NCBI RefSeq assembly: GCF_001677475.2
Contig: NZ_CP015229.1
Length of the DNA: 64,000 nt
Strand: one strand, 5' to 3'
Source of the DNA: Escherichia coli
Lineage (GTDB): Bacteria > Pseudomonadota > Gammaproteobacteria > Enterobacterales > Enterobacteriaceae
Shown here: in pieces, positions 5,220 to 33,892 of the stretch
Position numbering within the stretch: position 1 is the stretch's first letter
How the letters are laid out: each line of letters starts with the position of its first letter
Program-made: the position numbers and the translations under genes
Notes under the pieces: model-generated
Database searches by the model: none
What the model was told of the DNA's origin: nothing
The model's input: only the letters and a program-made list of their open reading frames with translations

Positions 5220-5595
5220 AATTCACACCCTTATAAGGCTGGGAAAGCAGACGGAATCAAAACGAAACGCAACGTGCGAGATCGACTAACTGCACCATAT
5301 TCTCCTGAAATATGAAGATATACTGAAAACAAATAAGCGACTTAGGACAGTTTCAATCTACGCTACTGTTCTTCAGAAGAGTATAGCCCATCGTAATTAT
5401 TTTTCGGTGACAGCGAATATCGTATGTTTTTTCATATTCATACATTTTTATTAGGGGATTTATGGCTATTTAACTAAGTGTGGTTAATTGCGTGGTGAAT
5501 TTGACTTAAGTAAGCATGATTACTAGTGGGATATTTCAAGAGGGTAGCAAGCCGGTGGGTAAACCACCGGCTTGTCACAAAGTATGAATGGGAGT

Positions 5596-6915: not shown

Positions 6916-6990
6916 ATATGCTGGTTTCCGGTAAACAGATGTGCGCTCATTCTCGTACTTATCCCGGTTAAGTCAATACGACAGCGAGCA

Positions 6991-7020
6991 CGAAAAAGGG
7001 AGCGATTAATTATCGCTCCC
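6991..7020 (-). terminator. Intrinsic terminator downstream of gadC
   Basis: Hairpin gggagcgat-taat-tatcgctccc at 6998..7020 preceded on the plus strand by aaaaa (T5 on the transcript). Confidence 0.65.
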
Positions 7021-7045
7021 TTGTCTTATAACCATTCAGACATGG

Positions 7046-8581
7046 TTAGTGTTTCTTGTCATTCATCACAATATAGTGTGGTGAACGTGCACGCGGGTGC
7101 AGGAAGAAGTGACCTTTTGGTGCGTTCTGACTGTTGATTGGCTCCAGAGTGACGCCGGTATTCGCTTTGCCTTTACGATCATGAACAGCATAGAGAATAA
7201 AGGGCAGGGCAAGTACCACCAGGAAACTAACGACCAGTAATTCAACATACATATCGGTAGAGTCACCCTGGATGTTATCCGGCGGCAGGAAGGAAACAAT
7301 AAACGCCATAATTGAAGTCAGCAGACCGACAATAGCCACGACCAGTTTCACCCCTTTACCACCAGGGATATTAAATGTGCGTTTTAAGTCAGGATGTTTA
7401 AGAACCAACACAATGTAGCCAATAAACAGCATGAAATAAGCACACAGATAAATCACCACCGTCAGCGCCAGTGCGATCAGGAAGGACATGTTGTTACCGC
7501 CACCGGTATTGGTGAGGATGATCAACGCGATAGAAGTAATCACCAGCTGCGAAATGACCAGCGTTACCGGTACGCCATTTTTGTTCATTTTAGCGAATGC
7601 CGCTGGCAGCAGGTTTTTCTGCGCTGTGACATACATCCCGCGAGAAGGACCAACAATCCAGGAGGCGATTTCCGCCAAAACACCCAGCAACAACAGTGCG
7701 GAGATCACGCGAACCGTCCACTCAATTTCCGGTGCCACATGGGACATCAGAACGGTAAAGGTTTGCATTACCCCTGCGGAGAGGTTGATTTCATTACCCG
7801 GAATGACCATCGCAATAGACAAACCGCCAACAGAGCTTAAGCAGATTGCCGCCACCATCAGCAGTAACATAGCCAGTGGATAGTCGCGCCCGGGGTTGCT
7901 CATTTCATTGACGTGAGTTGCGGAAGCTTCTACGCCCATATAACTCAAAATGAAGGCAACAAATACAACCAGGGTGCCCACTTTAGAGAAGTCAGGGAAG
8001 AAGGTCTTCGAATCCATTTCGATAGCAACGGGGGCACCGGAGTGCAGATAAATAGCCGCTAATGCGATCAAAATAAATGCAGGTAACAGGATACCGGCGA
8101 AGAAGCCAACTTTAGCAATTCGTGCCGTGTATTTCGTGCCACCAAACTGCGTTAATGCCAGCGCCCAAAGAATGATGAGTGCTGCAATAGTTTTGGTAAT
8201 GGGGTCTTCATTCAGCGCTGGCCATTTCAGGATGTAGGAGAGTGCCCCTAACACGAAATAGAGCATCGGAATAAAACCAATGGCGATTTGCAGATAGCCA
8301 AATGAGATCGCTGCAAATCCCCATCTCGGCCCCAGAGTATTTGATACCCAGGCGAAGACACCACCTTCTTCCCAGCCGTCGACGGTGGCCATTTCCGCAG
8401 CACAAAGTCCCACGGGAATAAACCATAAAATCCCGCCTAATAGCAGGAAGAAGACTAATGAAAAGCCCGATGTTGCGAAGGTAGGGTATTCATAAACAGC
8501 CATTACCATCGATGCCGTTATGGCAAAAAAGCCGAGTAATGTGAGCTGCTTAGCTTTACCTGTCTGTACTGATGTAGCCAT
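7046..8581 (-). CDS. gadC: Glutamate:GABA antiporter
   Basis: 511-aa polytopic membrane [39 protein letters not shown]... recognised as GadC. Confidence 0.92.
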
Positions 8582-8690
8582 ATTATCCCCCTAAAACGGT
8601 ATTCCTGTCGGAACCGCACCTGTTTTGTTCTGAAGCGTATTCAGAACAATATTTTCCGTTGCTAATGCCAGTGAACAGACTTTGGAGATT

Positions 8691-8716
8691 GTCCCGAAAC
8701 GGGTTCGTTTCGGGAC
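8691..8716 (-). other. 11-bp perfect stem-loop in the gadB-gadC intergenic region
   Basis: gtcccgaaacg-ggtt-cgtttcgggac; no U-tract follows, so more likely a processing or stability element than a terminator. Confidence 0.5.
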
Positions 8717-8736
8717 ACCGTTACCGTTAAACGTTA

Positions 8737-10137
8737 TCAGGTATGTTTAAAGCTGTTCTGCTGGGCAATACCCTGCAGTTTCGGGTGATCGCTGAGATAT
8801 TTCAGGGAGGCTTTGTAGTCTTCCAGCAACAGTTCAGCAAAGTCCATTTCGAAGCCACGACGACACATAATGCGCATCACCACGATGTCAGTGGCTTCAC
8901 CGCCGAGAGTGAAGGCCGGAACCTGCCAGCCGCGCAGACGCAGACGTTCAGAGAGGTCGTAGAGGGTGTATCCCGGATCTTCACCATCTTTCAGTTTGAA
9001 GCAGACCGCCGGGATGCCTTCGTCCGGACGACCGGTACAGATGAACTCATACGGCCCCAGTTTGGCGATCTCATCCGCCAGATAGGTAGCGACCTGATAA
9101 GAGGCGTTCTGTACTTTGGTATAGCCTTCACGACCGAGGCGCAGGAATTCATAGTACTGTGCAATTACCTGACCCGCCGGGCGGGAGAAGTTGATGGCGA
9201 AAGTACCAATCTGACCACCGAGGTAGTCAACGTTGAACACCAGTTCCTGCGGCAGCGCTTCTTCGTCACGCCAGATAACCCAGCCGCAGCCCAGCGGAGC
9301 CAGACCGAATTTATGGCCTGAAGCACTGATCGATTTCACCCGCGGCAGGCGGAAGTCCCAGACGATATCCGGGGCAACGAACGGCGCCAGGAAGCCACCG
9401 CTGGCAGCGTCGATGTGCATGTCGATGTCGATACCGGTGTCGGCCTGGAATTTATCCAGCGCATCGTGCAGCGGTTGCGGGAACTCATAGTTACCGGTGT
9501 AGGTCACGCCGAAAGTCGGCACCACGCCGATGGTGTTTTCGTCGCAGGCTTCAATCATGCGTTTCGGGTCCATAAACAACTGACCGGGGCGCATAGGGAT
9601 CTCACGCAGCTCCACATCCCAGTAGCGGGCGAATTTATGCCAGCAGATTTGTACCGGACCGCACACCAGGTTTGGTTTATCCGTTGGTTTGCCTGCAGCT
9701 TCCATACGCTTGCGCCAACGCCATTTCATCGCCATCCCGCCGAGCATACAGGCCTCGGAAGAACCAATGGTGTTGGTGCCAACGGCCTGACCATTTTTCG
9801 GCGCAGGCGCATGCCACAGATCGGCAACCATATTTACGCAACGCAGGTCAATGGCTGCGGATTGCGGATATTCTTCTTTGTCGATCCAGTTTTTGTTAAT
9901 GGATAAATCCATCAATTTGTGGACATTTTCGTCGTCCCAGGTCTGGCAGAAAGTGGCCAGGTTCTGACGAGCGTTGCCATCAAGATATAATTCGTCATTG
10001 ATAATCTGGAATGCGACATCGTCGCGCATTTCGTGCAGCGGAAAACGTTTTGATTCTGCGATAGTGGAAATAGACTTCGCACCAAAACGTGAATCGAGTA
10101 GTTCCGACCTTAAATCCGTTACTTGCTTCTTATCCAT
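8737..10137 (-). CDS. gadB: Glutamate decarboxylase beta
   Basis: ORF 8737..10206; start trimmed to [24 protein letters not shown]... (466 aa) as in E. coli GadB; gadA is excluded by the gadC neighbour. Confidence 0.92.
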
Positions 10138-10216
10138 TTTAAACTCCTTAAAATGATTGGATCGCATTAAAAAAGTAGGATTTATCGATAAAGTAAGCAA
10201 GTGCAAAGGACTCGTG

Positions 10217-10236
10217 TTTAAATAACAAAATCCTAA
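10217..10236 (-). promoter_or_regulatory. GAD box (GadE/GadX-type binding site) upstream of gadB
   Basis: Minus strand reads TTAGGATTTTGTTATTTAAA, the 20-bp GAD-box consensus known from gadA/gadBC promoters (recalled from literature). Confidence 0.8.
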
Positions 10237-10454
10237 TGTTATTTATCGTGAGATATTACACGAATAATATTTTTTCATTGAAAAACAATATAATATGGAA
10301 TTCCTGGGTGGTGGTAAGGTGTTTTATGCTGTTATTTTTATGCGCATTATGTGCCTCCTGAATTATCACGTAAAAATCAGACCTTAAAATATCACTATTA
10401 GTACTTGGTTATTATTTTGAACGCATTTATAAAATTATTACATAAAAATAGCGA

Positions 10455-10492
10455 ATATTGATAAAATCCCCGCCAACGATGTGTTGACGGGG
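10455..10492 (-). terminator. Putative intrinsic terminator downstream of pqqL
   Basis: Imperfect hairpin ccccgccaac-gatgtg-ttgacgggg (10468..10492) followed on the transcript by attttatcaatat. Confidence 0.45.
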
Positions 10493-10498
10493 CTGTTA

Positions 10499-13294
10499 TT
10501 ATTTTGGCAATAATATTCCAGTATAAGTATTTACCGGATGAGAAAGATATTGTTTAACGGCAGTGTTAACATTCTCTACCGTCATTTGTTTCAACAATTG
10601 CTCCTGCTCAGTCCATGCTGCAGGATCGTCATATTGAATAAGACTATTTACAATAGTGTTCGCTAATTGTTGAACGCTACGCTGTTGGATATCGAGGCTG
10701 CGCTGAACGTTTTGCTGGTATTCATTCAGTTCTTGCTCACTGATCCCTTTAGCCAGACGCTTAACCATCACTTCATTCGCTAACGTTAACAGTTCATCAT
10801 GTCGTTCTGGTTGACAAGTAAAAGCCAGCAAATGACTGATATCTTTGGCCTCAGGATCAACCGAGAGGCGAGAAGAAACGCTGTATGCTCCAGATGCCTG
10901 TTCACGAATATTAACGCGTAGATCTTTTGCCAGTGCGACGTTAAAAGCATCGAGCGCCATACGCGTCTCCAGATTTACAGGTGTCCGGGAATCATAACGT
11001 TTCCACTGTGAAACCTGTGCCACAGGTTCATTTTGTTCTTTTACAGTAACCGATGCGTTGTCCGTCGCGCGAGTTAATGGTTTACCTGCGGCTAATGGCG
11101 AATCAGAGTGTTTGATTGATCCTAAGTAACGCGTAATTAACGCCACGAGTTTGTCTTCTGCGACATTACCGACAATGACAAACGTGATATCCGCTGGAGA
11201 TGAAAACAACTGGCGATCGGCAGCCAGCGCATCTGCGGCAGTAAACTGTGCAATCTGATTTTCTTGCAGTAATTTCGTGCGGTCATCAGCATAGCGCGTC
11301 TCATACATCTGCTGGGCGAATTTCTCCGCTGGACGCTGGTCGAGCGTTTTCAACGCCTGAATTTGAGCATTTTGTAGCGATGCCCAAATATTATCGTTAA
11401 TCGTGCTGTGGGTGATTCGCTGGTTAATCAACTGGAAACCAGGTTCAGGGTTATTAGTCCGCGTGCTAACAGAGAGCAATGTATTCATGCCACTGACTTT
11501 ACTGCTCATGGTTACCGAGTTTTCCGCACTCCAGCGTTTCAGGCTGGAAGAGGAGAGTTCACCAACGCCGCTTCCGCTTACTGCTTTATTTGCCAGCGCG
11601 ATAAGTGATTTTTGCTGCGCAGGGAAACTTAAATCGCCTTTATTAGATACGGCAGTAATTTGTAGCTTTTGCTCTTCACCCGCGGATTTTGCCAGAATAA
11701 CCCTGGCACCATTGGAAAGTGTTAATGATGTCAGATTCTCAGCCAGCGTTTCTTTGCTGCTAATTTCCGCCAGTGGGTCAGCGTCTACTGTTAACGATAA
11801 ATTTCTGCCTGGGAAGATGTAAGCCGCCAGCTTTTTGTTGGCGTACTCTTTTTCCAGCGCCAGGATAGCCGCAGGAGACAATGCTTTTTTGGCAGCAACC
11901 TCATTGTTTACCATTTGCTCCCAAAATGCATCCTGGTTCTTTCTTAACTGCTGCCATTTTTCCGCCAGACTTTGCACGGTAATTTGCTGCCACAGACGTT
12001 TCGAAAGTTGATATGTCTCTTCCGGCGACAAGAACGGCGTATTATTTAATGAGCTGGATGCCAGGCGACTGGTCAGCATACGTAAATCACGTTCAGCTTG
12101 CTGATCAACCGCATTTTTCAGCCAGGTGAGGCGGGTAGATTTGACATCATCGAGTTCTTCAGCAGAAAAACCATGCTGATCAATGGTTGCCAACTCTGCC
12201 ATTAATGCATTCGCAGCATCCTGCATATTATCGTCTCGTGCATTTACACGGAAAAACAGCGACTGATAATCGGGTGCAATTTTAACGCTGCGCGCAGTGC
12301 CGCCAGAAATAGTCTTCAACTCGCCCGACTGTATGCGTTCCTGCAGACGTTGATTGAACAGCTGAACTAACATGCTCCATTCCGCTTGTTCGATAAAGCT
12401 TTGCTCATCGTTCACTTGTACCATTGGCAGGCGATAATAGAGTGCGATGCCGTTCACCCGGTTTTCTTTATCATTAATGATATTAAAGCGCAGGTGATTT
12501 TCGGCTTTTGTCGGCCAGACGCGATTTTCAGCTGCTTTGTTAGCCGGAAGCTTACTTAAATTATCCTTTATCAGCGCCAGCGCTTCTTTACTGTCGATAT
12601 CGCCGACCACGATAAAGGTCATATTATTTGGTTGATACCAGCGTTGATAAAATTGGCGCAATTGTGCCGGTGTGACCGTGGCGACAGTATCCATCAGGCC
12701 GATAGGTTCACGGTCTAAATTACGGGTATTAGCCAGCAGGAAAGGGCGGCGCGCCTGAGAGGTGCGCCATTTCGCATCCTGATGGGCACGCCATTCCTCA
12801 GTAATTACGCCACGTTCAGCGTCAACTTCGAGTTTTTCAAAGGTTGCGGCATTACTCCATTCACTGAAGATTGCCATCACTTGTTGCAGATTTTGTTTCT
12901 GCGTAGTCGGCAAACTCACCTGATACACCGTTTCGTCATAGCTGGTATAGGCATTAACATCGCGACCAAAACGCAGGCCCATTGACTCAAATGTTTCGAT
13001 GACTTTATTACCCGGCCATGTTTTTGTGCCGTTAAACATCATATGTTCTACAAAATGAGCCACGCCGCGCTCATTGTCTTCTTCCTGCAATGAACCGGTA
13101 TGAATTTGCAGCCATAAATTTATCTGATCCTTTGGATGAGCATGCGGATAAATCATATATCGCAAGCCATTGTCCAGTTGCCCGGTAATTAACTTTTCAT
13201 CCTGCGGTAAGGCGGCGGCAATCAGCCGCCCGGGGAGCAACAGAGTTGCCACTAACGTCAGTAAGAAACAGAGGTTTCTCATAATTATCTCCAT
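10499..13294 (-). CDS. pqqL: Periplasmic M16-family zinc peptidase
   Basis: 931-aa ORF with signal peptide and HFVEH (inverted HXXEH) zinc motif; recognised as E. coli PqqL. Confidence 0.9.
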   Translation of the reverse strand: MEIIMRNLCFLLTLVATLLLPGRLIAAALPQDEKLITGQLDNGLRYMIYPHAHPKDQINLWLQIHTGSLQEEDNERGVAHFVEHMMFNGTKTWPGNKVIETFESMGLRFGRDVNAYTSYDETVYQVSLPTTQKQNLQQVMAIFSEWSNAATFEKLEVDAERGVITEEWRAHQDAKWRTSQARRPFLLANTRNLDREPIGLMDTVATVTPAQLRQFYQRWYQPNNMTFIVVGDIDSKEALALIKDNLSKLPANKAAENRVWPTKAENHLRFNIINDKENRVNGIALYYRLPMVQVNDEQSFIEQAEWSMLVQLFNQRLQERIQSGELKTISGGTARSVKIAPDYQSLFFRVNARDDNMQDAANALMAELATIDQHGFSAEELDDVKSTRLTWLKNAVDQQAERDLRMLTSRLASSSLNNTPFLSPEETYQLSKRLWQQITVQSLAEKWQQLRKNQDAFWEQMVNNEVAAKKALSPAAILALEKEYANKKLAAYIFPGRNLSLTVDADPLAEISSKETLAENLTSLTLSNGARVILAKSAGEEQKLQITAVSNKGDLSFPAQQKSLIALANKAVSGSGVGELSSSSLKRWSAENSVTMSSKVSGMNTLLSVSTRTNNPEPGFQLINQRITHSTINDNIWASLQNAQIQALKTLDQRPAEKFAQQMYETRYADDRTKLLQENQIAQFTAADALAADRQLFSSPADITFVIVGNVAEDKLVALITRYLGSIKHSDSPLAAGKPLTRATDNASVTVKEQNEPVAQVSQWKRYDSRTPVNLETRMALDAFNVALAKDLRVNIREQASGAYSVSSRLSVDPEAKDISHLLAFTCQPERHDELLTLANEVMVKRLAKGISEQELNEYQQNVQRSLDIQQRSVQQLANTIVNSLIQYDDPAAWTEQEQLLKQMTVENVNTAVKQYLSHPVNTYTGILLPK

Positions 13295-13338
13295 GCGAAA
13301 ACCGGGCGAATTTACCCGGTTAAGTAAAATCCGAACTA

Positions 13339-15711
13339 TTAAAATTTCATGCTGACATCAAGCCAGAAAGTACGGCCACTGGCGTAGGTCGCCACACCGG
13401 TATTCGTTGTATCAACAGCGGTTTTGCTATCCAGTACATTGAGAATATCGGCACTGATCGTCAGGTTTTGTTGTTTCAGAAATTGTGGCGTCCAGGACAA
13501 GCGGGTGTCCCAGGTCAGGCTGCTATCCAGTTTTTCGTCAACATACTGCTTGTAATCTGAATATTCGCTGTTGTATTGCGCATTCGTCTTACCCAGGATA
13601 ATGCGAGCTTTACGCGCTTCTTGCCAGGCCAGCGTATTCGCCCACACCAACCCGCTCGGTTGATGCGTGAAATCCATGTTTAAGGAGATCTTTAATGGGT
13701 TATTAAAATCCGCCACTGGAACGCTATCGTAAGAAACCAGATTACCGTTATAAACCACCTGGTTATCACCGGTATTGCTCTCCTCATAACCATTGTTTAA
13801 CGACAAGTTGCCCTTGCTCTTGATATAGCTAAAGACAATTTGCGGGTTAATATCTACCTGGCTGATATGCAGGGGTTCGGCCAGTTCAAGACTGAGGTTA
13901 AACGAATGCGTTTTGGTTTTGCCGTCGTTGTTATATTCAGTAATGGTGGTTTTAGTCGCGCTGTCGGTACGACTGCTTTTGCTGATTTGATCATGCGCTT
14001 CACGGTAAACATAGTTTGCGCGCGCAATAACGTTCTTACCGAATTTTTGCTGCAATCCCATTGCCAGTTCATCGTTATAAGGCGTTTTCAAATCCTGATA
14101 ACGCGTCAGGGTTTTATTGCCTGATACAGATTCCGTCCAGCTATTGCGGATATCACGTAATCCCATATCAAGAATATTCCCGCCATAGTAACGGTTATAA
14201 CCTGCGGTAATCATTGAGGTTTGATCAGCAAAAATATCCCATTCCGTCATAAAGCGTGGGGAAATATTGTGGTTTGACAGATAGTTGTCATAGTCATACC
14301 GCACGCCGGGCATTAACGACACATTACGCCAGCTAATGCGATCCGCCATATACAGCGTGTAGTTGTCAATTCCCAGGCTGCCTTTACCTTTATGGTAAAT
14401 GGTATGGTTAGTTTTCTTTCCGGCAGCATTAATCACATAGGATTCAGACTGGTTATGGCGTTCGGTCCATGCATCGGAATAGATGTATTCCGCGCCGAAG
14501 TAGGGTTGATGAGAAACATTACCCACGGTGAATTTTTGCCAGTCCAGGCGTGTTTTGAAGGTGTAATTATCTACAGCCTGGGAAATGTGTCCTAATCCGC
14601 CACGGGTGCAACGCCCTGTAATATCACCATATGTACATGAAAGTTCGGTGTACCAGATGTCATGATCGTGACGGGTATAATCACTAATATGATCCCAACC
14701 AACGGTGGTACGTAGTTTGGCCCATGCGAGATGCGTATCCATATCCCATGCCAGACCGTAGGATTTATTACCCATTTCGCGATCAGACTGCGGGAAGGTG
14801 CTGGTATTATAATCACGGCTGGAGCCGGTATATTTTAAGGTTAAATCGTGGGTAAAGCGGTCGCTGGCAAACCAGGTAAATTTGCTCACTGCGGTATCGA
14901 TAACGTTTTTGTACTGTGCCCGACCGGCGACAATGCCGTCATTCGAAACATAATCCGCGCGGGTGATATCAGACTGGCGGCGCGATAAACCGGCGGTAAC
15001 GCCGAAGTTATGAGCGAGTTCCTGATTAAATGACAAAGTATAAAAGTTCTTTTTAAAATCTGGAGAGTAATAAGTACTTCCTGAAGAACCTTGATTAAAT
15101 GCGCTCTTGTTATTCTCATCGATATGCGATGTTAACCAGTCCGAACGCGTAGTGCGGTAACCCAGTTTCACGCTGCTATCATCAGCGTTGAAGCGTTTGA
15201 TCTTTGCATCAATTACCCCGCCATTGAAGCGACCAAATTCAACCGGCACAAAACTGTCATAAAGCGTCACATTGTCCAGTAAGCTGACATCAAGATAATA
15301 CCCCTGTGACATCCCGCTAATATTGGTTGCACTACTGGCATCGGACTCATTCGCTGGGTTCAGGTTATTAGTTGCACTAATACCGTCAATCAAATAGGCA
15401 TTCTGGTAGGGCGACGCACCGTGAATAGAGATTTTCTCCGGGCGAATATCTCCCTGGTTCAACGAGGTACTTTGCGTTGAATCCATGCGTACCGCAGGGT
15501 TGGTTCTCAGCAGATCGCTGATATTGCCATTCCCGGTCGGTAAACGCTCGATGCTTTCACTGGTGTAATGCGTGTTGCCGTTTACGGGTACAGGGACAGG
15601 AGCATAGACCGTCATCTCTTCAAAAAAATGCATGTACATGTTTTTGTCATCGACGGCCTGCGCCACATCAGCGCCACATAAAATGACGCCAGGAATAAGA
15701 ACTCGCTTCAT
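13339..15711 (-). CDS. yddB: TonB-dependent outer-membrane receptor
   Basis: 790-aa ORF with signal peptide and C-terminal aromatic residue (…VSMKF); recognised as YddB, partner of PqqL. Confidence 0.85.
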   Translation of the reverse strand: MKRVLIPGVILCGADVAQAVDDKNMYMHFFEEMTVYAPVPVPVNGNTHYTSESIERLPTGNGNISDLLRTNPAVRMDSTQSTSLNQGDIRPEKISIHGASPYQNAYLIDGISATNNLNPANESDASSATNISGMSQGYYLDVSLLDNVTLYDSFVPVEFGRFNGGVIDAKIKRFNADDSSVKLGYRTTRSDWLTSHIDENNKSAFNQGSSGSTYYSPDFKKNFYTLSFNQELAHNFGVTAGLSRRQSDITRADYVSNDGIVAGRAQYKNVIDTAVSKFTWFASDRFTHDLTLKYTGSSRDYNTSTFPQSDREMGNKSYGLAWDMDTHLAWAKLRTTVGWDHISDYTRHDHDIWYTELSCTYGDITGRCTRGGLGHISQAVDNYTFKTRLDWQKFTVGNVSHQPYFGAEYIYSDAWTERHNQSESYVINAAGKKTNHTIYHKGKGSLGIDNYTLYMADRISWRNVSLMPGVRYDYDNYLSNHNISPRFMTEWDIFADQTSMITAGYNRYYGGNILDMGLRDIRNSWTESVSGNKTLTRYQDLKTPYNDELAMGLQQKFGKNVIARANYVYREAHDQISKSSRTDSATKTTITEYNNDGKTKTHSFNLSLELAEPLHISQVDINPQIVFSYIKSKGNLSLNNGYEESNTGDNQVVYNGNLVSYDSVPVADFNNPLKISLNMDFTHQPSGLVWANTLAWQEARKARIILGKTNAQYNSEYSDYKQYVDEKLDSSLTWDTRLSWTPQFLKQQNLTISADILNVLDSKTAVDTTNTGVATYASGRTFWLDVSMKF

Positions 15712-15748
15712 TTATTTATATCTCCGTACAGCAGGGCTTTTATTGTTT

Positions 15749-17434
15749 TTATAAAACCGCGCTAATGTCACAAATATCATCAGCCAGGTTCCAGACACCG
15801 GGTTGATGTGTAACCATAATGACGCCGCTTGTGGGTAGTTTTTCACGCACTAAACGCAGTAAGCGGATAGCCTCTTGTTCCTCAAGATGAGAGGTAGTTT
15901 CGTCAAGAAATATCCATTTCGGACGTCGTAAAATTAATCGTGCCAGGGCGATACGTTGTTTTTCGCCGCTGGAAAGAATATCTCCCCAGCGATCGTGGTC
16001 ATGAATACGCGCAGCCAATTTCCCCAGACCAACCTGATGCAGTACTTCGCTCAACGATTTATCGTCTACGGGCAGGGGAAGTGCTTTACAAATAATCTCT
16101 TTCAGTAAGCCGGTTTTGATTAACGGTGTTTGTGACACATACCAACTGTCAGCAGGAGAAGAAATATAACCTTTAAACCACGGCCAGCAGTGAGATAATG
16201 TTTTAAGCAGTGTGGTTTTTCCCGCACCAGAGTAACCTTTCAGTAATAGCCATTTGCCTGGCGGAACATGAAAGTTCAGGTTCTCTAATATGATCTTATT
16301 ATCAGGGGTACGAATACTCGCGTCAGCCACTTGTACCGCATGTTGGCAATTTTTAGGCTTATTCGTAGGGCGCTGTTCGGTGAGTTGATGGAACTCATAC
16401 AAGCGATCGATAACCGCAGCCAGTTCAGCAATTTCATCATATTTATAAATAAACCAGCTTAAATTGTTCGATACCAGCATAAATGCCTGGCGCGATTTCA
16501 TAAGTCCGCCCAGATTGATCTGTCCGCTAATAAACTGCGGCAATAACAGAAAGTAGGGAAGAACGCTAAGCGAACGCGAATAAATATTCTGCCAGTAATC
16601 AAGCCACCGCTGACGATTCATTAAACGATGCCAGTTCTCTTTAATGGTATGAAAATTGTCGCTCAACTCCTGGCGTTGTAGAGACTCAGCATTGCTTAGC
16701 GCAATCAGTTCTGCCTGTTTATTATGCTGCACAAGATTAGTTCGAAATGTCGCTTCGCTACGTTGTTTTTCCACATTAAGCGGACGAATACGTTTACCCA
16801 CCTTATGGGTAAATAAAGTTCCACCGATCACAATGAGCACGACGGTATAGACCATATACCCCTGGATATTCCATTCTGTTCCACCAACAGTGAATGAGAG
16901 CGTACCCGCACTTTGCCAAAGAATAACGGTAAAGGTGATCAGCATGCTAAGCGACTGGATGAAGCCAAATGAAAGGCTGAGCGTTTTACTGATCAGTAAG
17001 AGAATGTCCTCAGCGATACGTTGGTCAGGGTTATCTGTATTTTTATGCTCGCCGTAGATTTGCGTGAAGTAGTAGTTTTTATCTGCAAACCAGCGATTAA
17101 GATAGTAATCTGTTAACCATTCGCGCCAGCGAATAGTCAGTAGTTTAATTAACCATGTTTTGTTTACGGATATTAATACAAAGATCCCCAGCAGGGCAGG
17201 GAACCAAAGAACAAGCTGCCAAAGCTTATCGGTTTCTTTCTGGCTTAGCGCATTGAAAAAATCATTATTCCAGTCGTTTAACCAGACCTGAATTTTAACA
17301 ACGCCAAGGATCATGGCGAGGATAATAATGATTAACAGCACTGAAGTTTTATTATTCTTACGCAGCCAAAAGGGCTTCAGCAGACAGAGATACTTTGCTA
17401 TCAACATACAAAACGTAATGGGAATGGTTATCAT
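15749..17434 (-). CDS. yddA: Fused ABC transporter permease/ATP-binding protein
   Basis: 561-aa ORF; N-terminal transmembrane region, C-terminal Walker A (GYSGAGKTT) and signature LSSGEKQR. Confidence 0.85.
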   Translation of the reverse strand: MITIPITFCMLIAKYLCLLKPFWLRKNNKTSVLLIIIILAMILGVVKIQVWLNDWNNDFFNALSQKETDKLWQLVLWFPALLGIFVLISVNKTWLIKLLTIRWREWLTDYYLNRWFADKNYYFTQIYGEHKNTDNPDQRIAEDILLLISKTLSLSFGFIQSLSMLITFTVILWQSAGTLSFTVGGTEWNIQGYMVYTVVLIVIGGTLFTHKVGKRIRPLNVEKQRSEATFRTNLVQHNKQAELIALSNAESLQRQELSDNFHTIKENWHRLMNRQRWLDYWQNIYSRSLSVLPYFLLLPQFISGQINLGGLMKSRQAFMLVSNNLSWFIYKYDEIAELAAVIDRLYEFHQLTEQRPTNKPKNCQHAVQVADASIRTPDNKIILENLNFHVPPGKWLLLKGYSGAGKTTLLKTLSHCWPWFKGYISSPADSWYVSQTPLIKTGLLKEIICKALPLPVDDKSLSEVLHQVGLGKLAARIHDHDRWGDILSSGEKQRIALARLILRRPKWIFLDETTSHLEEQEAIRLLRLVREKLPTSGVIMVTHQPGVWNLADDICDISAVL

Positions 17435-17730
17435 TAGCGAAAATTGATTGTGCCATCCAATGATTGTCTATGGCAATGATTTACTGATGAAATTTATTTA
17501 AGTGTCATTTAACAATATGAAATATAAAGGAATATTTCATTTTCAGTGGTTATGGTTATGCTATTGATAATCAAGGATATTGCTAATGCTAATGCCCTGA
17601 CGCATACCACGTAAGCCAGGATTTTCGCAAGGGAAGATGATGATGACGAAACACCCGACAGGAATATGTGTCGGGTGCATTGTTAAGGTCATAAGAAGGA
17701 GGCTAAGACTGGAGCTAAGAGGGAGCGTTA

Positions 17731-18888
17731 TTAATTATTCTCCATTTGTCTTGCAACATCCATGATGTGGTAAAGCGGTACTCTGTTCTTAGCTAACTCC
17801 ACCATGGCGTTCAAATAAGGCACCATGGTTGAAAAAAGGATTTTATAACCTTCACAAAAATAGGAAACAGTCTCATTGTTTACTTTAGTAATACGATGCT
17901 TAGGACAACCGCCATTGCAGATAGGTTTATATGCACATTGCTGACATTTCGCTGAAATCCGTTTTTTTTGCGCTGTCAGTTGAACACTGTTCATCGTTTT
18001 GAGTTCAGATTTATTAATGTTTCCAATTTTGTACTGTGGATAGACAAAATGGTCGCATTCGTAAATGTCTCCATTACTTTCAACAACCAGATTATCCTTG
18101 CAGGACTCCTGGAAAATACAACTGGTATGCCCATTCCCCAAAAAACGGCTGACAAAGCTTTCAAACTGACGGATGAAAATTTCACCCACATCGTTTTTAA
18201 CCCATTGCATAAAAATGGTCGACATAAACTTGCCATAAGCCGTAGGAGGCACAGAAAAATCAATGATACGGAATGTGTTCTCACTATGACCACTGAAATC
18301 AATATTCGGCGTCCCGGTTTCGAGCAATTCGATAAATTGCATATGTTTACTGCCGATAGATTTTAAAAAATGATAAACCTCAAGAGGGTAATGGACATTA
18401 ACGTTATTAATGACGGTTAACGTATTAAACTCTACTTGATATGATTTCAGACGCTCGATGGCTGCTATCACTTTTGTAAAAGTACCGTTACCTGAATTAC
18501 TGCGTCTGTAACGGTCATGTAGCTCCTGGGGTCCATCGATCGAGATACCAACCAGAAACTCATGTTCTTTGAGAAAGGCACACCATTCATTATTCAATAA
18601 AATGCCATTCGTTTGTAATGCATTAAAAATACGTTTTTGGCCTGCATAGCGTTGTTGATAGTGAATAACTTTACGGAAAAAATCCAGGCCAGCCAGAGTG
18701 GGTTCACCGCCTTGCCAGGTAAAATAGACCTGATTGCCAGACGCTGCGATATATTGTTTGATGAACTCTTTCAGAGTGCTGTCATCCATCCATTTTTCAT
18801 GAGTAAACTGCGACTCTTTTTCAAGGTAAAAACAGTAATCACATTTGAGATTACATTGAAAACTGGAGGGCTTGGCTGTAACGTGCAT
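17731..18888 (-). CDS. ydeM: Radical-SAM anaerobic sulfatase-maturating enzyme homolog
   Basis: ORF 17731..18903 trimmed to [21 protein letters not shown]... (385 aa); CxxxCxxC radical-SAM motif. Confidence 0.85.
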
Positions 18889-18939
18889 CGCTATCTCGCT
18901 CAATAAGGCGGCGGAAAATTCCGCCGCATGAAGGTTTAG

Positions 18940-20622
18940 TTATTTCGCTTCGCTTAGTGCTTTCTTGATATTGTTAAACTTCTCCTGATTTACCTCGCTA
19001 AGCGGTGGCTGGCTGCTGTCGATAAACTCTCTTACCACGCCTTGCATCTCTTTAACGACCTGCGGATTGGCGGCGGCAAGGTTATCTTTTTGCTGTAGAT
19101 CCGTCAGTTTGTATAGACCTAACTGATTGTTTTCTACTGTATAGACAAGCGAATAATCGTTATTTCTCACCGTATAAGAGAATTGGCTTAAGTCCTCAGT
19201 GTTGGGGTTATGCGGGTAATCGTCTGACTGATGACGGACAAATTTGTGGTAATTATCCCAGAATGGAATATTTTCCTCGTCAAACCAGTGAGAATAAGAG
19301 GTTATCCAGGTCAGATTTTTATGTGGCTCGCCTTGTTTCTTATCTTGCAACCAGGGCAGCAAGGAAACGCCATCCAGCTTAAGGTCTTTTGGAATGCTGA
19401 TATCGGCTGCATCAAGAGCTGTCGGGTAGAAATCCATTGCGGAAATCAGCTTGTCATAATTACCGGGTTGAAGTTTTCCTTTCCACCACATAAACATTGG
19501 GGTGTGAGTACCGCCAGGATAGGTCTGACTCTTATAGCCTTTTTGCGCCCCGTTCAGCGGCAGAGGACCATCGATAACCGCACCATTATCGGAGGTAAAG
19601 AGAATAATTGTATTGTCATACTGTCCGTTTTTCTTCAGTTGTTCGAGAATGCGTTTTACACCCTGATCAACAGAATAAACGGAAGCGTAGTAGTTATCTG
19701 CCGTTTGACTACCGGTATTAAATTGCTTCTGATATTGCTCCGGTGCAGGATTATCATTTGGCAGGTGCGGAGCATTATAAGCCAGGTAAAGCATAAAAGG
19801 CTGGTCAAGTGTTTTGGCACGATCAACAACGCCAATTGCCTCATCGGTTAACTGATCGCTGATATAACCTTTTGCGGGGACGCGTTCACGATTTTTGAAC
19901 AGTGAAGGGGAGTTGTAATATGCCGTTCCTGCAGCGTGGAATCCCATAAAGTAATCAAAGCCACGGTTTTGCGGTTGCCATTCTTCCGCAGAAAATGTGG
20001 TGAAGTTGTCATGATAGTCACGCGTTTGTTTATCTTCCGGTACCGGCACATTACTGATTTTTGACAAGTGCCATTTACCTACTGCTGCAGTGTAATAACC
20101 ATGATTCTGGAATAATTCAGGCAAGAAAGTTTCTGTTAGCGGAATACCATCCTGAGCATCAGTATTGGAATAGACACCAAAGCGGGCGGGTGCTCGACCG
20201 GTCATTATTGCGGCGCGGGAGGGGCCGGAAACACCGTGCGCCACATAGCCGTTAGTAAAACGTACGCCTTCATCCATTAATGAAAGGAGCGTCGGCGTTG
20301 ATTTTTGCGCAGCTTCAATGGCTTTATCTATCCCTATTTTGTAGGTATCGACAACTTCACGATTTTCCATTGTTTTTGGGTCAAAAGATCCCTTATCAAA
20401 AGGAAGTTGTCCATAACCAAGATCATCCATGGTCAGTACGATAATATTTGGCTTTCCTTTGGTACTGTATTCAGTCGGCGTAAAGTCTGAGAAAGCAACG
20501 TTTGTTTTGGTTGCTTTCAGCTTTACATCATCTGCCGCATGAGCAGCAAATGCAGTCATACCAGATGCCAGTATCAAAGATATCGAGGTACTTACGACAC
20601 TTTTCTTTAATGCAGACTTCAT
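18940..20622 (-). CDS. ydeN: Putative sulfatase (secreted)
   Basis: ORF 18940..20655 trimmed to MKSALKKSVVSTSISLILASG... (560 aa); adjacent to its putative maturase ydeM. Confidence 0.85.
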   Translation of the reverse strand: MKSALKKSVVSTSISLILASGMTAFAAHAADDVKLKATKTNVAFSDFTPTEYSTKGKPNIIVLTMDDLGYGQLPFDKGSFDPKTMENREVVDTYKIGIDKAIEAAQKSTPTLLSLMDEGVRFTNGYVAHGVSGPSRAAIMTGRAPARFGVYSNTDAQDGIPLTETFLPELFQNHGYYTAAVGKWHLSKISNVPVPEDKQTRDYHDNFTTFSAEEWQPQNRGFDYFMGFHAAGTAYYNSPSLFKNRERVPAKGYISDQLTDEAIGVVDRAKTLDQPFMLYLAYNAPHLPNDNPAPEQYQKQFNTGSQTADNYYASVYSVDQGVKRILEQLKKNGQYDNTIILFTSDNGAVIDGPLPLNGAQKGYKSQTYPGGTHTPMFMWWKGKLQPGNYDKLISAMDFYPTALDAADISIPKDLKLDGVSLLPWLQDKKQGEPHKNLTWITSYSHWFDEENIPFWDNYHKFVRHQSDDYPHNPNTEDLSQFSYTVRNNDYSLVYTVENNQLGLYKLTDLQQKDNLAAANPQVVKEMQGVVREFIDSSQPPLSEVNQEKFNNIKKALSEAK

Positions 20623-20954
20623 AAATGTTCCTCTTCTTATTGTACTTAATTCCAAAGTAATTTTACGAAGAGAAATAAGTGGATGTAAGTGAAGTTAGTC
20701 ACATAAAGAGATAGCAGATTTAGCTAAAAAAAGGGAAATAACAGTCCATAAAGCGTTGACATTACTTTTTGTTCTACTAAGTAATTTCTCGACGATAAAC
20801 AACTAATCTATTGATATTTAATAAATTATTGTATTTTACTGACAAAATGCCGAATTAAGATCATAAATAATCATGCAACAGGTTATGCAAATGCATAAAT
20901 ATGTGATGAATGTCACTTATTTATTTCAATAAATATATCGCCTAAAAACAACGC

Positions 20955-20975
20955 GGGGCAGGAAATGGCTGCCCC
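20955..20975 (-). terminator. Putative intrinsic terminator downstream of ydeO
   Basis: Hairpin ggggcag-gaaatgg-ctgcccc followed on the transcript by gcgttgttttt. Confidence 0.5.
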
Positions 20976-21023
20976 ATTTAATTCTTACGTAGCGTGTGTG
21001 GTTGACTACTCGTTAGCAAATAA

Positions 21024-21785
21024 TCAAATAGCTAAAGCATTCATCGTGTTGCCCTTATTCATACCCGTGTGCCTTTGACAACGGTACTCCTTAGAAACTC
21101 TCTTTGGACTGTTGCCAAAATGTTTGCGGAACGCATAAATAAAATAAGATGTACTGGCATAACCACATTGTTCGGCAATTTTATTGACTGAACCTTCTAC
21201 GCGTATCAAATTTTTTGCGTGCTGCATTCTGGCATCTAAAAGAATCTGTGAGAATGTCGTTTGCTCTTGCTTAAGTTTTTTCTTCAACAGGCTTTCACTG
21301 ATGTACAGGCAGTCACAAATATCTTTCAGCTTCCATGGGTGCGCCAGCTTCATGTTGACAATATTTCTCACTTTCCCGGAAACGGATAGCACACCGTTAG
21401 TTAATAGTGTAATGAAACCTTTGCATGCGGCAAAAATAGACAGGCAAGAAAAAAGCAAAAGTTCTGAAAAATTATGATGATTGCGTTCTTCCGAGTTGAG
21501 ATAAGCAATCATTTCATTAAGCAATCCAGTCGGTACATTTGAAGCACGTAAAAACTTCGCAGGAACAGGCACCGTCACTGTCTGGATGTTAGTGCATTGT
21601 AGATATTTTTTAATGGTATTTTCATTAAATCCGATTTCTTTAAAATGCCGCTCATAAGGTTCAAAATGCGTACGAACAGCGTTATCTACCATCAAGATCT
21701 CGCCGTCAGAGAAGGCGTAATCTTTATCTAAAATGTTAGCGTTGAAGGCATGATGAATAAATATAACAGAACAAACGAGCGACAT
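21024..21785 (-). CDS. ydeO: AraC-family acid-resistance transcriptional activator
   Basis: 253-aa ORF MSLVCSVIFIHHAFNANILDKDYAFSDG... with C-terminal AraC HTH; recognised as YdeO. Confidence 0.92.
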   Translation of the reverse strand: MSLVCSVIFIHHAFNANILDKDYAFSDGEILMVDNAVRTHFEPYERHFKEIGFNENTIKKYLQCTNIQTVTVPVPAKFLRASNVPTGLLNEMIAYLNSEERNHHNFSELLLFSCLSIFAACKGFITLLTNGVLSVSGKVRNIVNMKLAHPWKLKDICDCLYISESLLKKKLKQEQTTFSQILLDARMQHAKNLIRVEGSVNKIAEQCGYASTSYFIYAFRKHFGNSPKRVSKEYRCQRHTGMNKGNTMNALAI

Positions 21786-21859
21786 TTTATCTCCTTAAAA
21801 CAATAAAGTTTTTATCGATACTTTTTTAACATTTCATATTTATAATTTGCTGTTTATTT

Positions 21860-22057
21860 TCAGTCTTGCAAACTATTGATAATGAAATGTGTAATATCTC
21901 TTGCAATGCGACCCATTTCTGAAATACCCAGCTGATCAATTGCCGAAAAAATGGCTATCAACGTAAGTGTCAGTAATAAGACAACCACAATTACAGACAT
22001 GATTTCTTTATAGTTGTCTCTTTGCGTGATTTTGTTTTTCACTGTGGTCGCATGCAT
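21860..22057 (-). CDS. safA: Small membrane connector protein linking EvgS/EvgA to PhoQ/PhoP
   Basis: 65-aa ORF with a single transmembrane segment (IMSVIVVVLLLTLTLIAIFSAI); position between ydeO and ydeP as for safA. Confidence 0.85.
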   Translation of the reverse strand: MHATTVKNKITQRDNYKEIMSVIVVVLLLTLTLIAIFSAIDQLGISEMGRIARDITHFIINSLQD

Positions 22058-22168
22058 TTCAAATATGTTTATTTAGCGGATAACGTTAAAAATCGTTAAT
22101 CAGTATGCTTAATATAACAGGCTGGAGAAAAGAGGAAATAGGACTGGTGCTTCAGTACTGAGCGGAGT

Positions 22169-22186
22169 TTCTTACAGCTGTAGGCA
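22169..22186. promoter_or_regulatory. EvgA box upstream of safA-ydeO
   Basis: TTCTTACA-GC-TGTAGGCA, matching the inverted-repeat EvgA consensus TTCYTACA-N2-TGTARGAA (recalled), about 110 bp upstream of safA. Confidence 0.7.
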
Positions 22187-22304
22187 GAAGTTTATATCTT
22201 ATAGTATGTAGTTTAATTTAATCCATGTGAGCAAATTGCGCGATAATAGTCAATGAGGAATTCTTCTGCTGTGCGGATGACAGCAGAAGAAATGAGAAGA
22301 GGCA

Positions 22305-24584
22305 TTAATTTGATGGTTCTAATTCAACCGGAATACTTTTATAGCCAGGAATGCCACTTAATGGATCGTGGTTATCAAGTGTTAGCATGTGATTCGATTC
22401 TGGAAAATAGGTCACCAGTGAGCGGTCAGCCATAGGGTAAATGACCACTTTTAATCTATCCATGCGGCGTGAGCTGCGCTTACCGTCTGGCGTAAGCGCA
22501 ATAAGATTAACTCTTTCGCCGTTTTTTACACGGCAAATTTTAGCTTGTTTAGCACTCATAAAGACCACATCTCGTTGACCGAATACCCCTCGATAGCGAT
22601 CATCCATACCATAAATCGTCGTGTTGTACTGATCGTGGCTGCGTACTGTCGCCATGACCAGCTTACTATTAAACGCTGAAGAGGGATCTTCTAACAGCCC
22701 TTTGCTGGTAATGAAATTAGCCTTACCTGACGGCGTCATCCAGCGCCTTTCAGCAGCTGCATTTATCAGGTGAAAACCACCGGGATGACGGATGCGCTGG
22801 TTATAGTCGGCGAACTCTGGCAGCACAGCTTCAATGTCATTGCGAATGCGATCATAATCTTCCACCAGATACTCCCAGGCTACCACGCTCTGAGGTAGTG
22901 CTGCCTGCGCGATTCCCGCGACCACTGCACACTCTGATTTCAGCATTACACCGGCGGGTTTTAACACGCCACGCGAGGCATGAATCATCGACATTGAATC
23001 CTCAACGGTTACCGCCTGCGCACCGCTTTTTTGCATATCAATCTCGCTACGTCCCAGAACCGGCAGAATATAGCTATGCCGTGCGGTCAGCAGATGAGAG
23101 CGGTTAAGCTTAGTGGCTACGTGTACCGTCAGATCTAATTGCGTTAACGGTACAGCGCTCGCTTCCCGATCTGGCATTGCAAGTGCAAAGTTGCCCCCCA
23201 TGCAGATCAATGCTCGAGCTTGCCCCGTACATATAGCTTGCATGCTGGCAATTGCAGCATGTCCAGGTGCATGAGGTGGGGTGAAGCCATAGCGCTCACC
23301 AAGGCGAGCCAGAAACTCTGCAGACGGTTTCTCGGTGATACCGACGGTTCGGTCGCCCTGTACATTAGAGTGACCTCGTAGTGGGCAGATACCCGCACCA
23401 GGCTTGCCAATGTTACCTTTCATCAACAGCAGATTGACCAGTTGCTGTACATTCTGGGTACCATGTTCGTGCTGAGTGATCCCCATTCCGTAACAGATAA
23501 TGGTGCGTTCGGCAGCGACATATGCATCAGCCAGTTCGGCGATTTGAGTCTGACTTAATCCAGAAATACGTTCGATATCTTTCCACTCGGAATTGAGAAC
23601 GTCACGGCGTAGCTCGTCAAAGCCGACGGTATGCGTTTGAATAAATTCGTCATCCAGCAATGAGGGCCGACCTGCGGCGCTTGCAGCATCATCGCGCTCA
23701 ATTAACAGGCGCATCATCCCCTTGAGCAACGCCATATCGCCACCAATGCGCACGTTATAGTAGGCACTAGCCAACTGAGTCTCAGAGTTCGTCAGCATTT
23801 CAAACGGGTTTTGCGGTGCGGTAAATCGCTCCAGGCCACGTTCCTGTAGAGGATTGATGGCGATCATTTTCGCTCCCCGTTTCACTAAAGCGCGCAACGA
23901 AGTCAACATGCGAGGGTGGTTTGTACCAGGGTTATGCCCAATGCAAATGACTAAATCGCACTTCTCAAAGTCTTCCAGCAACACGGTCCCTTTACCCACA
24001 CCGATACTCGCTGCCAAACCCACACTGGTCGGTTCATGGCACATGTTGGAGCAGTCGGGAAAGTTATTGCTCCCGTATTCACGGGCAAAAAGCTGATAAA
24101 GAAAGGCAGCTTCATTGGAAGTGCGCCCCGAAGTATAGAATTCAACCTGATTGGGATCACTATAGCTTTGAAGGCGAGCGCCAATTTCGTCGAAAGCTTG
24201 TTGCCAGCTTAATGGCTTGTAACAGTCGCTGACGGCATCATATTTCAAAGGCTGAGTGAGACGCCCGGCAGCCTCAAGCTCGTGGTCTCCCCAGGTAAGT
24301 AATGATTGAACCGTATTCTCAGCAAAGAAAGAGGCGTTTACCTGCTTATCCGTGACTTCCCAGGCGATTGCTTTTGCGCCGTTTTCACAAATGTCGAATG
24401 ACGCACTGTGCTTAGGATCTGGCCATGCACAACCCGGACAGTCAAAGCCCTCTGGCTTATTCATGTCAAACATGGCAATAACATCCTGGCGTATATCCAT
24501 CTGCTTACGTACTGCATTCGCTACGGATTTAACAGCACCCCAACCACCGGCAGCTCCCTGGTAGGATTCAATTTTTTTCTTCAT
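22305..24584 (-). CDS. ydeP: Molybdopterin-type oxidoreductase, acid-resistance protein
   Basis: 759-aa ORF recognised as YdeP (formate-dehydrogenase-like family). Confidence 0.9.
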
Positions 24585-32062: not shown

Positions 32063-32141
32063 GAAAGAGGAGAGGCTTTATGTTCTTGAACCCTGAAGTA
32101 ATAACGACGACCGGAAAATCGCTTCGCATCACTCAAACTCA

Positions 32142-32169
32142 ATTTAACATAATATACATTATGCGCACT
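32142..32169. other. dif-like site, left junction (attL): host-like XerD arm, phage-like XerC arm
   Basis: ATTTAACATAA-TATACA-TTATGCGCACT; 27 of 28 identical to the reverse complement of E. coli dif (GGTGCGCATAATGTATATTATGTTAAAT, recalled); the single mismatch is the outermost base of the XerC arm. Confidence 0.85.
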
Positions 32170-32181
32170 AAGGTGCGCATA
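32160..32181 (+). repeat. 9-bp perfect inverted repeat of the XerC-binding arm
   Basis: TATGCGCAC-TAAG-GTGCGCATA; the left half is the XerC arm of attL, the right half an inverted copy; overlaps a 10-bp palindrome CGCATATGCG (32176..32185). Confidence 0.8.
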
Positions 32182-32202
32182 TGCGTATTCTGGAGGTGTG
32201 TC

Positions 32203-33815: not shown

Positions 33816-33855
33816 GCTGCATGAAAAAAACCTGAAGACGGCTCCGGCCCTTCAG

Positions 33856-33892
33856 CCTGGCACAGTGGCCCTCTTGATGTAACTGTGCCAGG
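33856..33892 (+). repeat. 11-bp perfect stem-loop in the VP3-VP1 intergenic region
   Basis: cctggcacagt-(15 nt)-actgtgccagg. Confidence 0.8.

Follow-up and report, generated by a model that had tools for sequence, protein, structure and literature searches.

Positions 17731-20622 of the 64,000-nucleotide stretch of Escherichia coli DNA analysed here (contig NZ_CP015229.1, assembly GCF_001677475.2; hereafter the window) hold two minus-strand genes, ydeN and ydeM, which encode a predicted sulfatase and its predicted maturase. The region is an already catalogued chromosomal E. coli operon, b1498-b1497 in K-12, and is intact and ordinary in the window. Its annotation dates back to the sequencing of the K-12 genome. 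The pair is also said to have been discussed by Schirmer and Kolter (1998). The span drawn in the initial annotation is exact, running from the final base of the ydeM stop codon (17731) to the A of the ydeN ATG (20622), and the gene names, order, strand and boundaries agree with the annotation of K-12 and of other E. coli genomes.

The window is collinear with K-12 along pqqL-yddB-yddA-yneP-ydeM-ydeN-ydeO-safA-ydeP (b1494-b1501). Synteny and protein lengths (560 and 385 aa) are the same in both, with two amino acid differences in YdeN, four in YdeM, about 1-2% nucleotide divergence and motifs that show no functional difference. Next to the pair, the small protein YneP is altered at 5 of its 40 residues, and a 6-bp TGCTAA is duplicated in tandem in the yddA-yneP spacer of the window (about 17581..17592). 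Among the 5,426 E. coli genomes searched, all complete, ydeN-ydeM is annotated in 5,392 and matched over its full length in 5,321, and 34 had no match. The best identity of these genomes to the window is at most 98.4% over its first 24 kb (1..24000) and at most 98.8% over the locus (17300..21200); the window thus derives from a lineage, or a Shigella-like relative, outside that collection, but the ydeN-ydeM locus itself is standard. Both genes are under purifying selection, with ratios of nonsynonymous to synonymous substitution rates (dN/dS) of 0.02-0.09 in most strain pairs, comparable to those of the neighbouring genes; the exceptions are pairs with K12-SCU113, which involve a handful of substitutions only.

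The pairing extends beyond E. coli: a sulfatase gene followed by a maturase gene on the same strand is also present in Yersinia pestis, Aeromonas veronii and an Anaerobiospirillum metagenome contig. Orthologues in these three genera are 70-80% (YdeN) and 53-66% (YdeM) identical to those of the window, and the two genes are separated by 57-222 nt (51 nt in the window). The genes flanking the module all differ between genera, and insertion sequence (IS) elements lie near it in two of the three (Aeromonas and Yersinia). Because three further genera show this gene order amid other neighbouring genes, the adjacency is not a product of chance, and the unit of inheritance is the two-gene sulfatase-maturase module.

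Domains and catalytic motifs of YdeN and YdeM

The coding features of the pair, with the evidence for each, are as follows.

18940..20622, minus strand: ydeN coding sequence, 560 aa, predicted periplasmic Ser-type S1 (formylglycine-dependent) sulfatase (open reading frame, Pfam, K-12 b1498)
20536..20622, minus strand: predicted Sec-type signal peptide of YdeN, residues 1-29, cleavage AHA|AD (read from sequence)
20194..20229, minus strand: formylglycine signature of YdeN, S132-G-P-S-R-A-A-I-M-T-G-R143 (alignment to S1_19 structures, orthologues)
17731..18888, minus strand: ydeM coding sequence, 385 aa, radical-SAM/SPASM protein, predicted anaerobic sulfatase-maturating enzyme (anSME) (TIGR03942, 4K36 alignment, K-12 b1497)
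18832..18855, minus strand: radical-SAM cluster motif of YdeM, C12-N-L-K-C16-D-Y-C19 (sequence; invariant in five orthologues)
17854..18120, minus strand: SPASM region of YdeM, with eight auxiliary [4Fe-4S] cysteines and D279 (orthologues, 4K36 alignment, Pfam)

The domain search proposed with the initial annotation returned Sulfatase in YdeN and Radical_SAM and SPASM in YdeM. In YdeN, PF00884 matches residues 58-408 (E=1.3e-70) and the whole of the profile is covered (1-301 of 301). The description of the protein as a secreted sulfatase is borne out by this domain together with the Sec-like N-terminus, MKSALKKSVVSTSISLILASGMTAFAAHA|ADD, in which K2, K6 and K7 are followed by a hydrophobic core and A-H-A, without a twin-arginine motif. 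The signal-peptide cleavage site is predicted to follow A-H-A, and YdeN is given as periplasmic in PMC10746267. In the list of open reading frames ydeN begins further upstream, at an in-frame TTG (20655); the AAGAGGA Shine-Dalgarno sequence (20629..20635) and the N-termini of the orthologues favour the ATG at 20622. This Shine-Dalgarno sequence is strong and lies 7 nt 5' of the ATG, which is also the start in the RefSeq annotation.

The formylglycine (FGly) motif, whose absence was to count against a sulfatase, is present in YdeN in its Ser form (S132-G-P-S-R136), with Ser132 as the predicted FGly precursor. It matches the C/S-x-P-x-R of S1_19 structures column by column (9HH3, ahpfCgpsr, and the C-to-S variant 9HH2). 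The signature is invariant across six orthologues, and SGPSR occurs in 118 of the 120 closest database homologues, which are thus Ser-type. Signature II (G175-YYTAAVGKWH185) and the metal ligands D66-D67 (DDLGYG) and D345-N346 (SDNG) are likewise invariant and structure-aligned, and the DDLGY, (C/S)GPSR, GKWHL, NAPH, SDNG and K-G-x-K motifs are all kept in the alignment to solved S1_19 sulfatases. Candidate YdeN-derived peptide substrates for YdeM would be a peptide containing AHGVSGPSRAAIMTGR and the 17-mer AHGVSGPSRAAIMTGRA.

The best PDB matches of YdeN are S1_19 structures (175-181 bits, E ~1e-50 to 1e-52, residues 109-436), a likeness measured by PDB match scores. Lower scores were obtained with S1_16 (138 bits), GALNS (123 bits) and the Bacteroides N-acetylglucosamine-6-sulfatase 5G2V (S1_11, 109 bits). 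All catalytic motifs align with the best-scoring solved relatives (PDB codes 6B0J, 6BIA, 6PSM and 9HH2). These are Cys-type enzymes of marine bacteria, whereas YdeN is Ser-type, exceeds them in length by 80-110 residues and has ~27 residues (82-108) inserted behind its first metal-binding motif. Characterised S1_19 members, which are endo/exo enzymes, cut the galactose 4-sulfate of kappa- and iota-carrageenan (PMC5066984, PMC6923384).

YdeM had been assigned to the anSME family with a CxxxCxxC motif, and both parts of this assignment hold: the motif is C12-x3-C16-x2-C19, and the protein passes the TIGR03942 "anaerobic sulfatase maturase" equivalog with 504.2 bits against a cut-off of 349.45 (profile 1-362 of 363). 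The Pfam domains are Radical_SAM PF04055 (4.4e-22) and SPASM PF13186 (3.5e-06), while the narrower models NF010308 (358 vs 484 bits) and NF010321 (256 vs 441 bits) are missed. The open reading frame can be extended to an in-frame TTG at 18903, and the ATG at 18888, also the RefSeq start, is preferred because all YdeM orthologues begin MH(V/I/F)T. An identity of YdeM as a maturase of peptides synthesised by the ribosome and modified after translation (RiPPs) was considered and rejected, as all such models are far under their cut-offs (DynA, 219 vs 450 bits).

Alignment of YdeM to the Clostridium perfringens enzyme anSMEcpe (PDB code 4K36; E=2.6e-63, residues 4-360) pairs all 11 cluster cysteines, GGEP and D279, so that the CX3CX2C motif and every auxiliary-cluster cysteine are in place. 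C12, C16 and C19 correspond to C15, C19 and C22 of the S-adenosylmethionine (SAM) cluster of anSMEcpe, and the SAM-binding motif Q59-GGEP63 is aligned and invariant. C257, C263, C278, C315, C318, C324, C328 and C345 each pair with a cysteine of 4K36 (ss-C-gmngt-C ... yp-CD; e-C-kk-C-kwfrl-C-kgg-C; yy-C), and D279 corresponds to the aspartate beside C276 of anSMEcpe. These functional residues are invariant in five orthologues from four genera. YdeM therefore has CX3CX2C, GGEP, the C-D catalytic pair and the eight auxiliary cysteines in common with anSMEcpe (PDB codes 4K36-4K39), at ~40% identity as estimated by eye from the alignment. The two differ in their partners: the natural substrate of anSMEcpe is a Cys-type sulfatase, whereas that of YdeM would be Ser-type.

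Some E. coli carry a second YdeN paralogue (contig DANAZC020000064.1, L006 3847..5544), which is 565 aa long, 77% identical and Ser-type. It adjoins a porin gene and IS110-type transposase genes and has no maturase gene downstream; a tblastn search found no degraded maturase 3' of it. A porin gene lies upstream of the Aeromonas module as well, and the Yersinia pair adjoins an ATP-binding cassette (ABC) importer.

Transcription signals, hairpins and yneP

The following features surround or separate the two coding sequences.

20954..20976, minus strand: ydeO intrinsic terminator, upstream limit of the ydeNM unit (8-bp stem with 6 GC pairs, then CGTTGTTTTT)
20623..20943, minus strand: ydeN regulatory region, 30-36% GC (promoter-like hexamers, CRP-like sites)
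20688..20703 and 20902..20917: CRP-like sites (near-consensus scan)
20689..20684 and 20665..20660, minus strand: candidate promoter, CTTACA / TAAAAT (promoter scan)
18908..18927, minus strand: stem-loop GCGGCGGA-AUUU-UCCGCCGC in the gap that separates the ydeN stop from the ydeM start (fold, presence in K-12)
17652..17677, minus strand: GC-rich hairpin with a 9-bp stem, 54 nt past the ydeM stop, which probably forms the 3' end or terminator of the ydeNM transcript (fold, position, strain variants)
17643..17765, plus strand: yneP, validated small-protein gene (40 aa) that runs towards ydeM and overlaps the last 35 nt of that gene (open reading frame, K-12 b4747)

The ydeO terminator is the sole call of the consensus terminator scan here, and both operon hairpins are uncalled. 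Promoter-like matches were not above those in shuffled sequence (10 vs 13.4), and since the promoter scan did no better than chance, the -35 and -10 hexamers listed above are a candidate only. Two of just four near-consensus CRP sites in the window fall in the 400-bp ydeO-ydeN spacer, and four strains have kept both. Of the two, the proximal one overlaps the candidate promoter at its -35-like hexamer; this would put CRP near -41.5, in class II geometry with respect to the candidate -10. To our knowledge, CRP control of ydeN has not been reported.

Published expression data bear on this. K-12 ydeN falls ~32-fold (log2FC -5.3) at pH 4.4, alongside malE, malM, xylF and treC (PMC10746267), its transcript and ribosome footprints being sufficient to show a fall of that size under acid stress. 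It also decreases with lamB, glpFK and nagBA in envelope-stress experiments, and this co-decrease with sugar-catabolic genes fits CRP control. AraC binds 5' of ydeN solely when arabinose is present (PMC3738151). PMC10878103 describes AraC as a repressor of ydeNM, with high ydeNM expression in an araC mutant (citing Stringer et al. 2014), and ydeM as higher in a gatC araC malI triple mutant than in gatC alone in the mouse gut. A scan for the canonical AraC site TAGC-N7-TCCATA (at most two mismatches window-wide, with relaxed criteria in the intergenic region) returned weak half-sites only, at 20712..20728 and 20734..20750 with 22-bp spacing, and no site is claimed. Treatment with FD&C Red 40, a sulfonated azo dye, induced ydeN and no other gene, but ydeN is dispensable for reduction of the dye. 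Inside ydeN, TGTCAAAAATCAGTAATG (20049..20066, minus strand) is conserved; in K-12 it is reported as an intragenic PhoB site that is transcriptionally inert (PMC10294691).

The intercistronic stem-loop folds at -18 kcal/mol (z=-3.5), as well as which none of 200 shuffles folded, and K-12 has it too. The corresponding gaps of Yersinia (-18.6) and Aeromonas (-24.8) also hold stem-loops, of unrelated sequence (L003 8680..8706, L004 8696..8719), and no U-tract follows any of the three. The stem-loop may stabilise or partly terminate the ydeN segment, which would yield more sulfatase than maturase. A search of the whole window against Rfam at gathering thresholds returned no match, so neither operon hairpin belongs to a described RNA family. 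We treat the CRP-like sites, the intercistronic hairpin and the yneP overlap as leads, not findings.

The hairpin downstream of ydeM had been placed exactly, at 17652..17677 with a 9-bp stem: on the minus strand it reads CACCCGACA, an 8-nt loop and TGTCGGGTG. Its centroid energy is -17.2 kcal/mol, and the minimum free energy structure (-19.2 kcal/mol) adds an outer 5-bp helix in the 71-nt fold; the z-score is -5.3 and 0 of 200 shuffles fold equally well. Perfect stems of at least 9 bp with 3-10 nt loops number 26 overlapping matches in the window, ~16 of them distinct, compared with ~1.6 in composition-preserving shuffles; such hairpins are thus ~10 times commoner than in shuffles, and most lie 20-55 nt past the stops of minus-strand genes. 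The ydeM hairpin resembles these in position and form. With a stem of 9-10 bp and 6 GC pairs it has the GC-rich stem-loop of an intrinsic terminator, and the terminator scan missed it because its tail, UUUCGUCA, is a poor U-tract.

The hairpin also falls within yneP, of which it forms codons 4-12, an overlap that the initial annotation had left out. It may therefore belong to yneP, either because the codons of that gene happen to form it or because it structures the 5' part of the yneP mRNA and limits translation, or to a convergent excludon in which yneP transcription would oppose ydeM, instead of terminating ydeNM; we regard this as a real but minority possibility. It would agree with the lack of a terminator call, with the appearance of yneP in a list of newly identified small proteins (PMC6001520) and with the listing of yneP-ydeM as a convergent excludon from RNA-seq coverage (PMC12288877). 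However, across nine strains YneP is near-neutral, with a ratio of nonsynonymous to synonymous polymorphism (pN/pS) of ~0.69 compared with the 0.02-0.09 of ydeN and ydeM, whereas in nine E. coli strains the stem is kept and only the loop varies; because the peptide is near-neutral, RNA structure accounts better for the conserved stem. Two natural variants in the stem form G.U pairs in the minus-strand (ydeM-sense) RNA and C.A mismatches in the plus-strand RNA, which is no more than suggestive, as there are just two such events, with a chance probability of ~0.25. The terminator and yneP readings of the hairpin are mutually compatible.

The yneP reading frame is open in eight of nine strains. 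In the ninth, N17, the K-12 start is AAG and the RefSeq start lies one codon upstream; the window has three consecutive ATGs at the start. The region 3' of ydeM is a rearrangement hotspot in other strains: a gad fragment abuts yneP in N17, and ydeM abuts pqqL in strains M70 and 875, which implies loss of yddA-yddB.

Proposed maturation of YdeN and alternative explanations

The account of the locus that we consider very probable as a whole is that ydeN and ydeM form an operon in which YdeM would oxidise Ser132 of Sec-exported YdeN to formylglycine without oxygen. It starts from the gene identities, intact motifs, operon anatomy, pair conservation, purifying selection and hairpins observed here, and it takes every chemical step, the cytoplasmic timing, the export and the substrate class by homology from Klebsiella AtsA/AtsB and Clostridium anSMEcpe. 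Transcription would start in the AT-rich region 3' of the ydeO terminator and end at or near the hairpin at 17652..17677. The YdeN precursor would carry a Sec signal peptide, and YdeM, presumably carrying one SAM-binding and two auxiliary [4Fe-4S] clusters, would recognise S132-G-P-S-R...TGR on unfolded YdeN in the cytoplasm; with Sec as the export route of YdeN, maturation has to take place in the cytoplasm beforehand. YdeM would split SAM to give a 5'-deoxyadenosyl radical, which would take the C-beta hydrogen of Ser132, and the serine would thereby be oxidised to C-alpha-formylglycine with no oxygen required. YdeN would then be exported and fold in the periplasm around a divalent cation bound by D66, D67, D345 and N346, and its hydrated formylglycine would hydrolyse a sulfate ester, with a sulfated sugar as the likeliest substrate. 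The initial suggestion that YdeN is anaerobically matured is supported by homology, with the motifs of both proteins in place.

Ser-type sulfatases depend on anSME in the Klebsiella AtsA/AtsB paradigm. AtsA/AtsB is reportedly established as the mechanistic paradigm by Szameit 1999, Marquordt 2003 and Fang 2004. Like YdeN/YdeM, the Klebsiella pneumoniae pair combines a Ser-type FGly motif, a Sec-type signal and an adjacent radical-SAM maturase gene. The gene order differs, atsB-atsA in Klebsiella and sulfatase first in ydeN-ydeM, and unlike AtsA, YdeN is far under the arylsulfatase equivalog (124 vs 481 bits) and nearer to carbohydrate sulfatases. The mucin and glycosaminoglycan sulfatases of Bacteroides thetaiotaomicron with their anSME BT0238 offer a second parallel, also from the gut, with anaerobic radical-SAM maturation of a periplasmic carbohydrate sulfatase. 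Bacteroides sulfatases are mostly Cys-type and are served by one unlinked maturase, and the Bacteroides S1_11 structure 5G2V matches YdeN far less well than S1_19 does (109 vs 181 bits). PMC10878103 puts forward BT4656 as an analogue.

Several points weigh against this account, those on activity in vivo being indirect. The arylsulfatase score is the best that YdeN reaches among NCBIfam equivalogs, all of whose cut-offs it misses by far, so that no specific substrate name is justified. A search of the accessible literature found no demonstration of FGly in YdeN, of YdeN sulfatase activity or of YdeM activity. E. coli K-12 is not known to show arylsulfatase activity under standard conditions. 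Deletion of aslB and ydeM reportedly left maturation of a heterologous Cys-type sulfatase unaffected (Benjdia et al. 2007), and the Ser-type AtsA of Klebsiella is said to need co-expression of atsB for activity in E. coli (Szameit et al. 1999). At the 3' end of the operon, the ydeM hairpin lacks the U-tract of an intrinsic terminator; its tail, UUUCGUCAUC, has 4 U in 8, and one strain has UGUCGUC.

These points leave room for the pair to be a cryptic, silent remnant of a horizontally acquired cassette, with intact genes and no sulfatase activity in E. coli. The GC content of ydeN-ydeM (38-46%, low against the ~50% of neighbouring ydeP), the IS elements beside the Aeromonas and Yersinia modules, occasional loss or truncation (ydeM is a truncated pseudogene in strain WCHEC115106, and 34 genomes have no match) and the lack of reported activity, including the absence of known arylsulfatase activity in E. 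coli, would agree with this. We nonetheless consider it quite unlikely: the low dN/dS of both genes, like that of their neighbours in most comparisons, argues against a decaying remnant, as do the full-length matches in nearly all of the complete genomes, the intact catalytic and cluster residues, the strong ydeN Shine-Dalgarno sequence, expression high enough to reveal the acid-stress fall and specific regulation by AraC. Still less likely is that YdeM is not dedicated to YdeN and that their adjacency is incidental, YdeM being a RiPP-type peptide maturase or serving AslA, YidJ or accessory paralogues. The models of SPASM peptide maturases, among them DynA, DarW/DarE and YhhB, do also give YdeM scores of 219-154 bits, and the 565-aa paralogue of YdeN, having no adjacent maturase, would need one in trans. 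However, TIGR03942 is the only model that YdeM passes, with DynA, DarE/W, YhhB and PapB far under their cut-offs; the sulfatase-then-maturase adjacency is strict in four genera while the other neighbours change; and no small same-strand precursor-peptide gene lies between or beside the pair.

A dedicated YdeN/YdeM pair might still act in sulfur supply, with YdeN as an AtsA-type arylsulfatase that scavenges sulfur under sulfate starvation and not as a carbohydrate sulfatase that forages for carbon. We find this unlikely. AtsA of Klebsiella and Pseudomonas would be the model for such a role, the ydeN orthologue rises 2.5-fold with the cys regulon in a Yersinia pseudotuberculosis iscR mutant, and the Yersinia pair has the ABC importer beside it. 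The nearest solved relatives of YdeN, though, are carbohydrate sulfatases (S1_19 galactose-4-sulfate enzymes at 181 bits, then S1_16 and GALNS-like), YdeN is far under the cut-offs of both the arylsulfatase and the choline-sulfatase equivalogs, and in E. coli ydeN varies together with CRP-dependent sugar-catabolic genes, has CRP-like sites 5' of it and is under AraC control.

A broader proposal, which we put forward as doubtful, is that ydeN-ydeM is a self-contained, horizontally mobile cassette by which gut facultative anaerobes remove the 4-O-sulfate of galactose-type sugars without oxygen, wired to catabolite control in E. coli. If it were true, the targets would be dietary carrageenan oligosaccharides or the N-acetylgalactosamine-4-sulfate of chondroitin or mucin, and the hosts Escherichia, Yersinia, Aeromonas and Anaerobiospirillum. 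The wiring in E. coli would then comprise the class II CRP site, repression by AraC with arabinose, an excess of YdeN over YdeM set by the intercistronic stem-loop, and opposition by antisense yneP.

As a genome feature ydeN-ydeM adds nothing new. YdeN and YdeM are among the few core E. coli enzyme pairs whose chemistry, though clear, is a predicted one; with a Ser-type motif, S1_19 enzymes as nearest solved relatives and catabolite-type regulation, a defined and cheap experiment becomes possible. The pair bears on the use of sulfated host and dietary glycans by enterobacteria in the gut.

Other elements of the window

A Microviridae (gokushovirus) prophage lies at 32080..36720 on the plus strand, between the yde fimbrial cluster and hipA. 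It encodes a replication protein (PF23343), a Chp2-type scaffold and the major capsid protein F (E=1.7e-184), together with a 260-aa open reading frame without a Pfam match, and is 91.9% identical to Escherichia phage EC6098 over 77%. Its left edge is a dif-like site (32142..32169, minus strand) with one mismatch to E. coli dif. Enterogokushoviruses integrate via XerCD/dif, and the left edge of the prophage is consistent with this. Further along, at 38620..44040 on the minus strand, is an intact 1,806-aa autotransporter of the ECSE_1600 family, with an ESPR signal, a pertactin/autochaperone region and a beta-domain. Its K-12 counterpart, yneO/ydeK, is a pseudogene.

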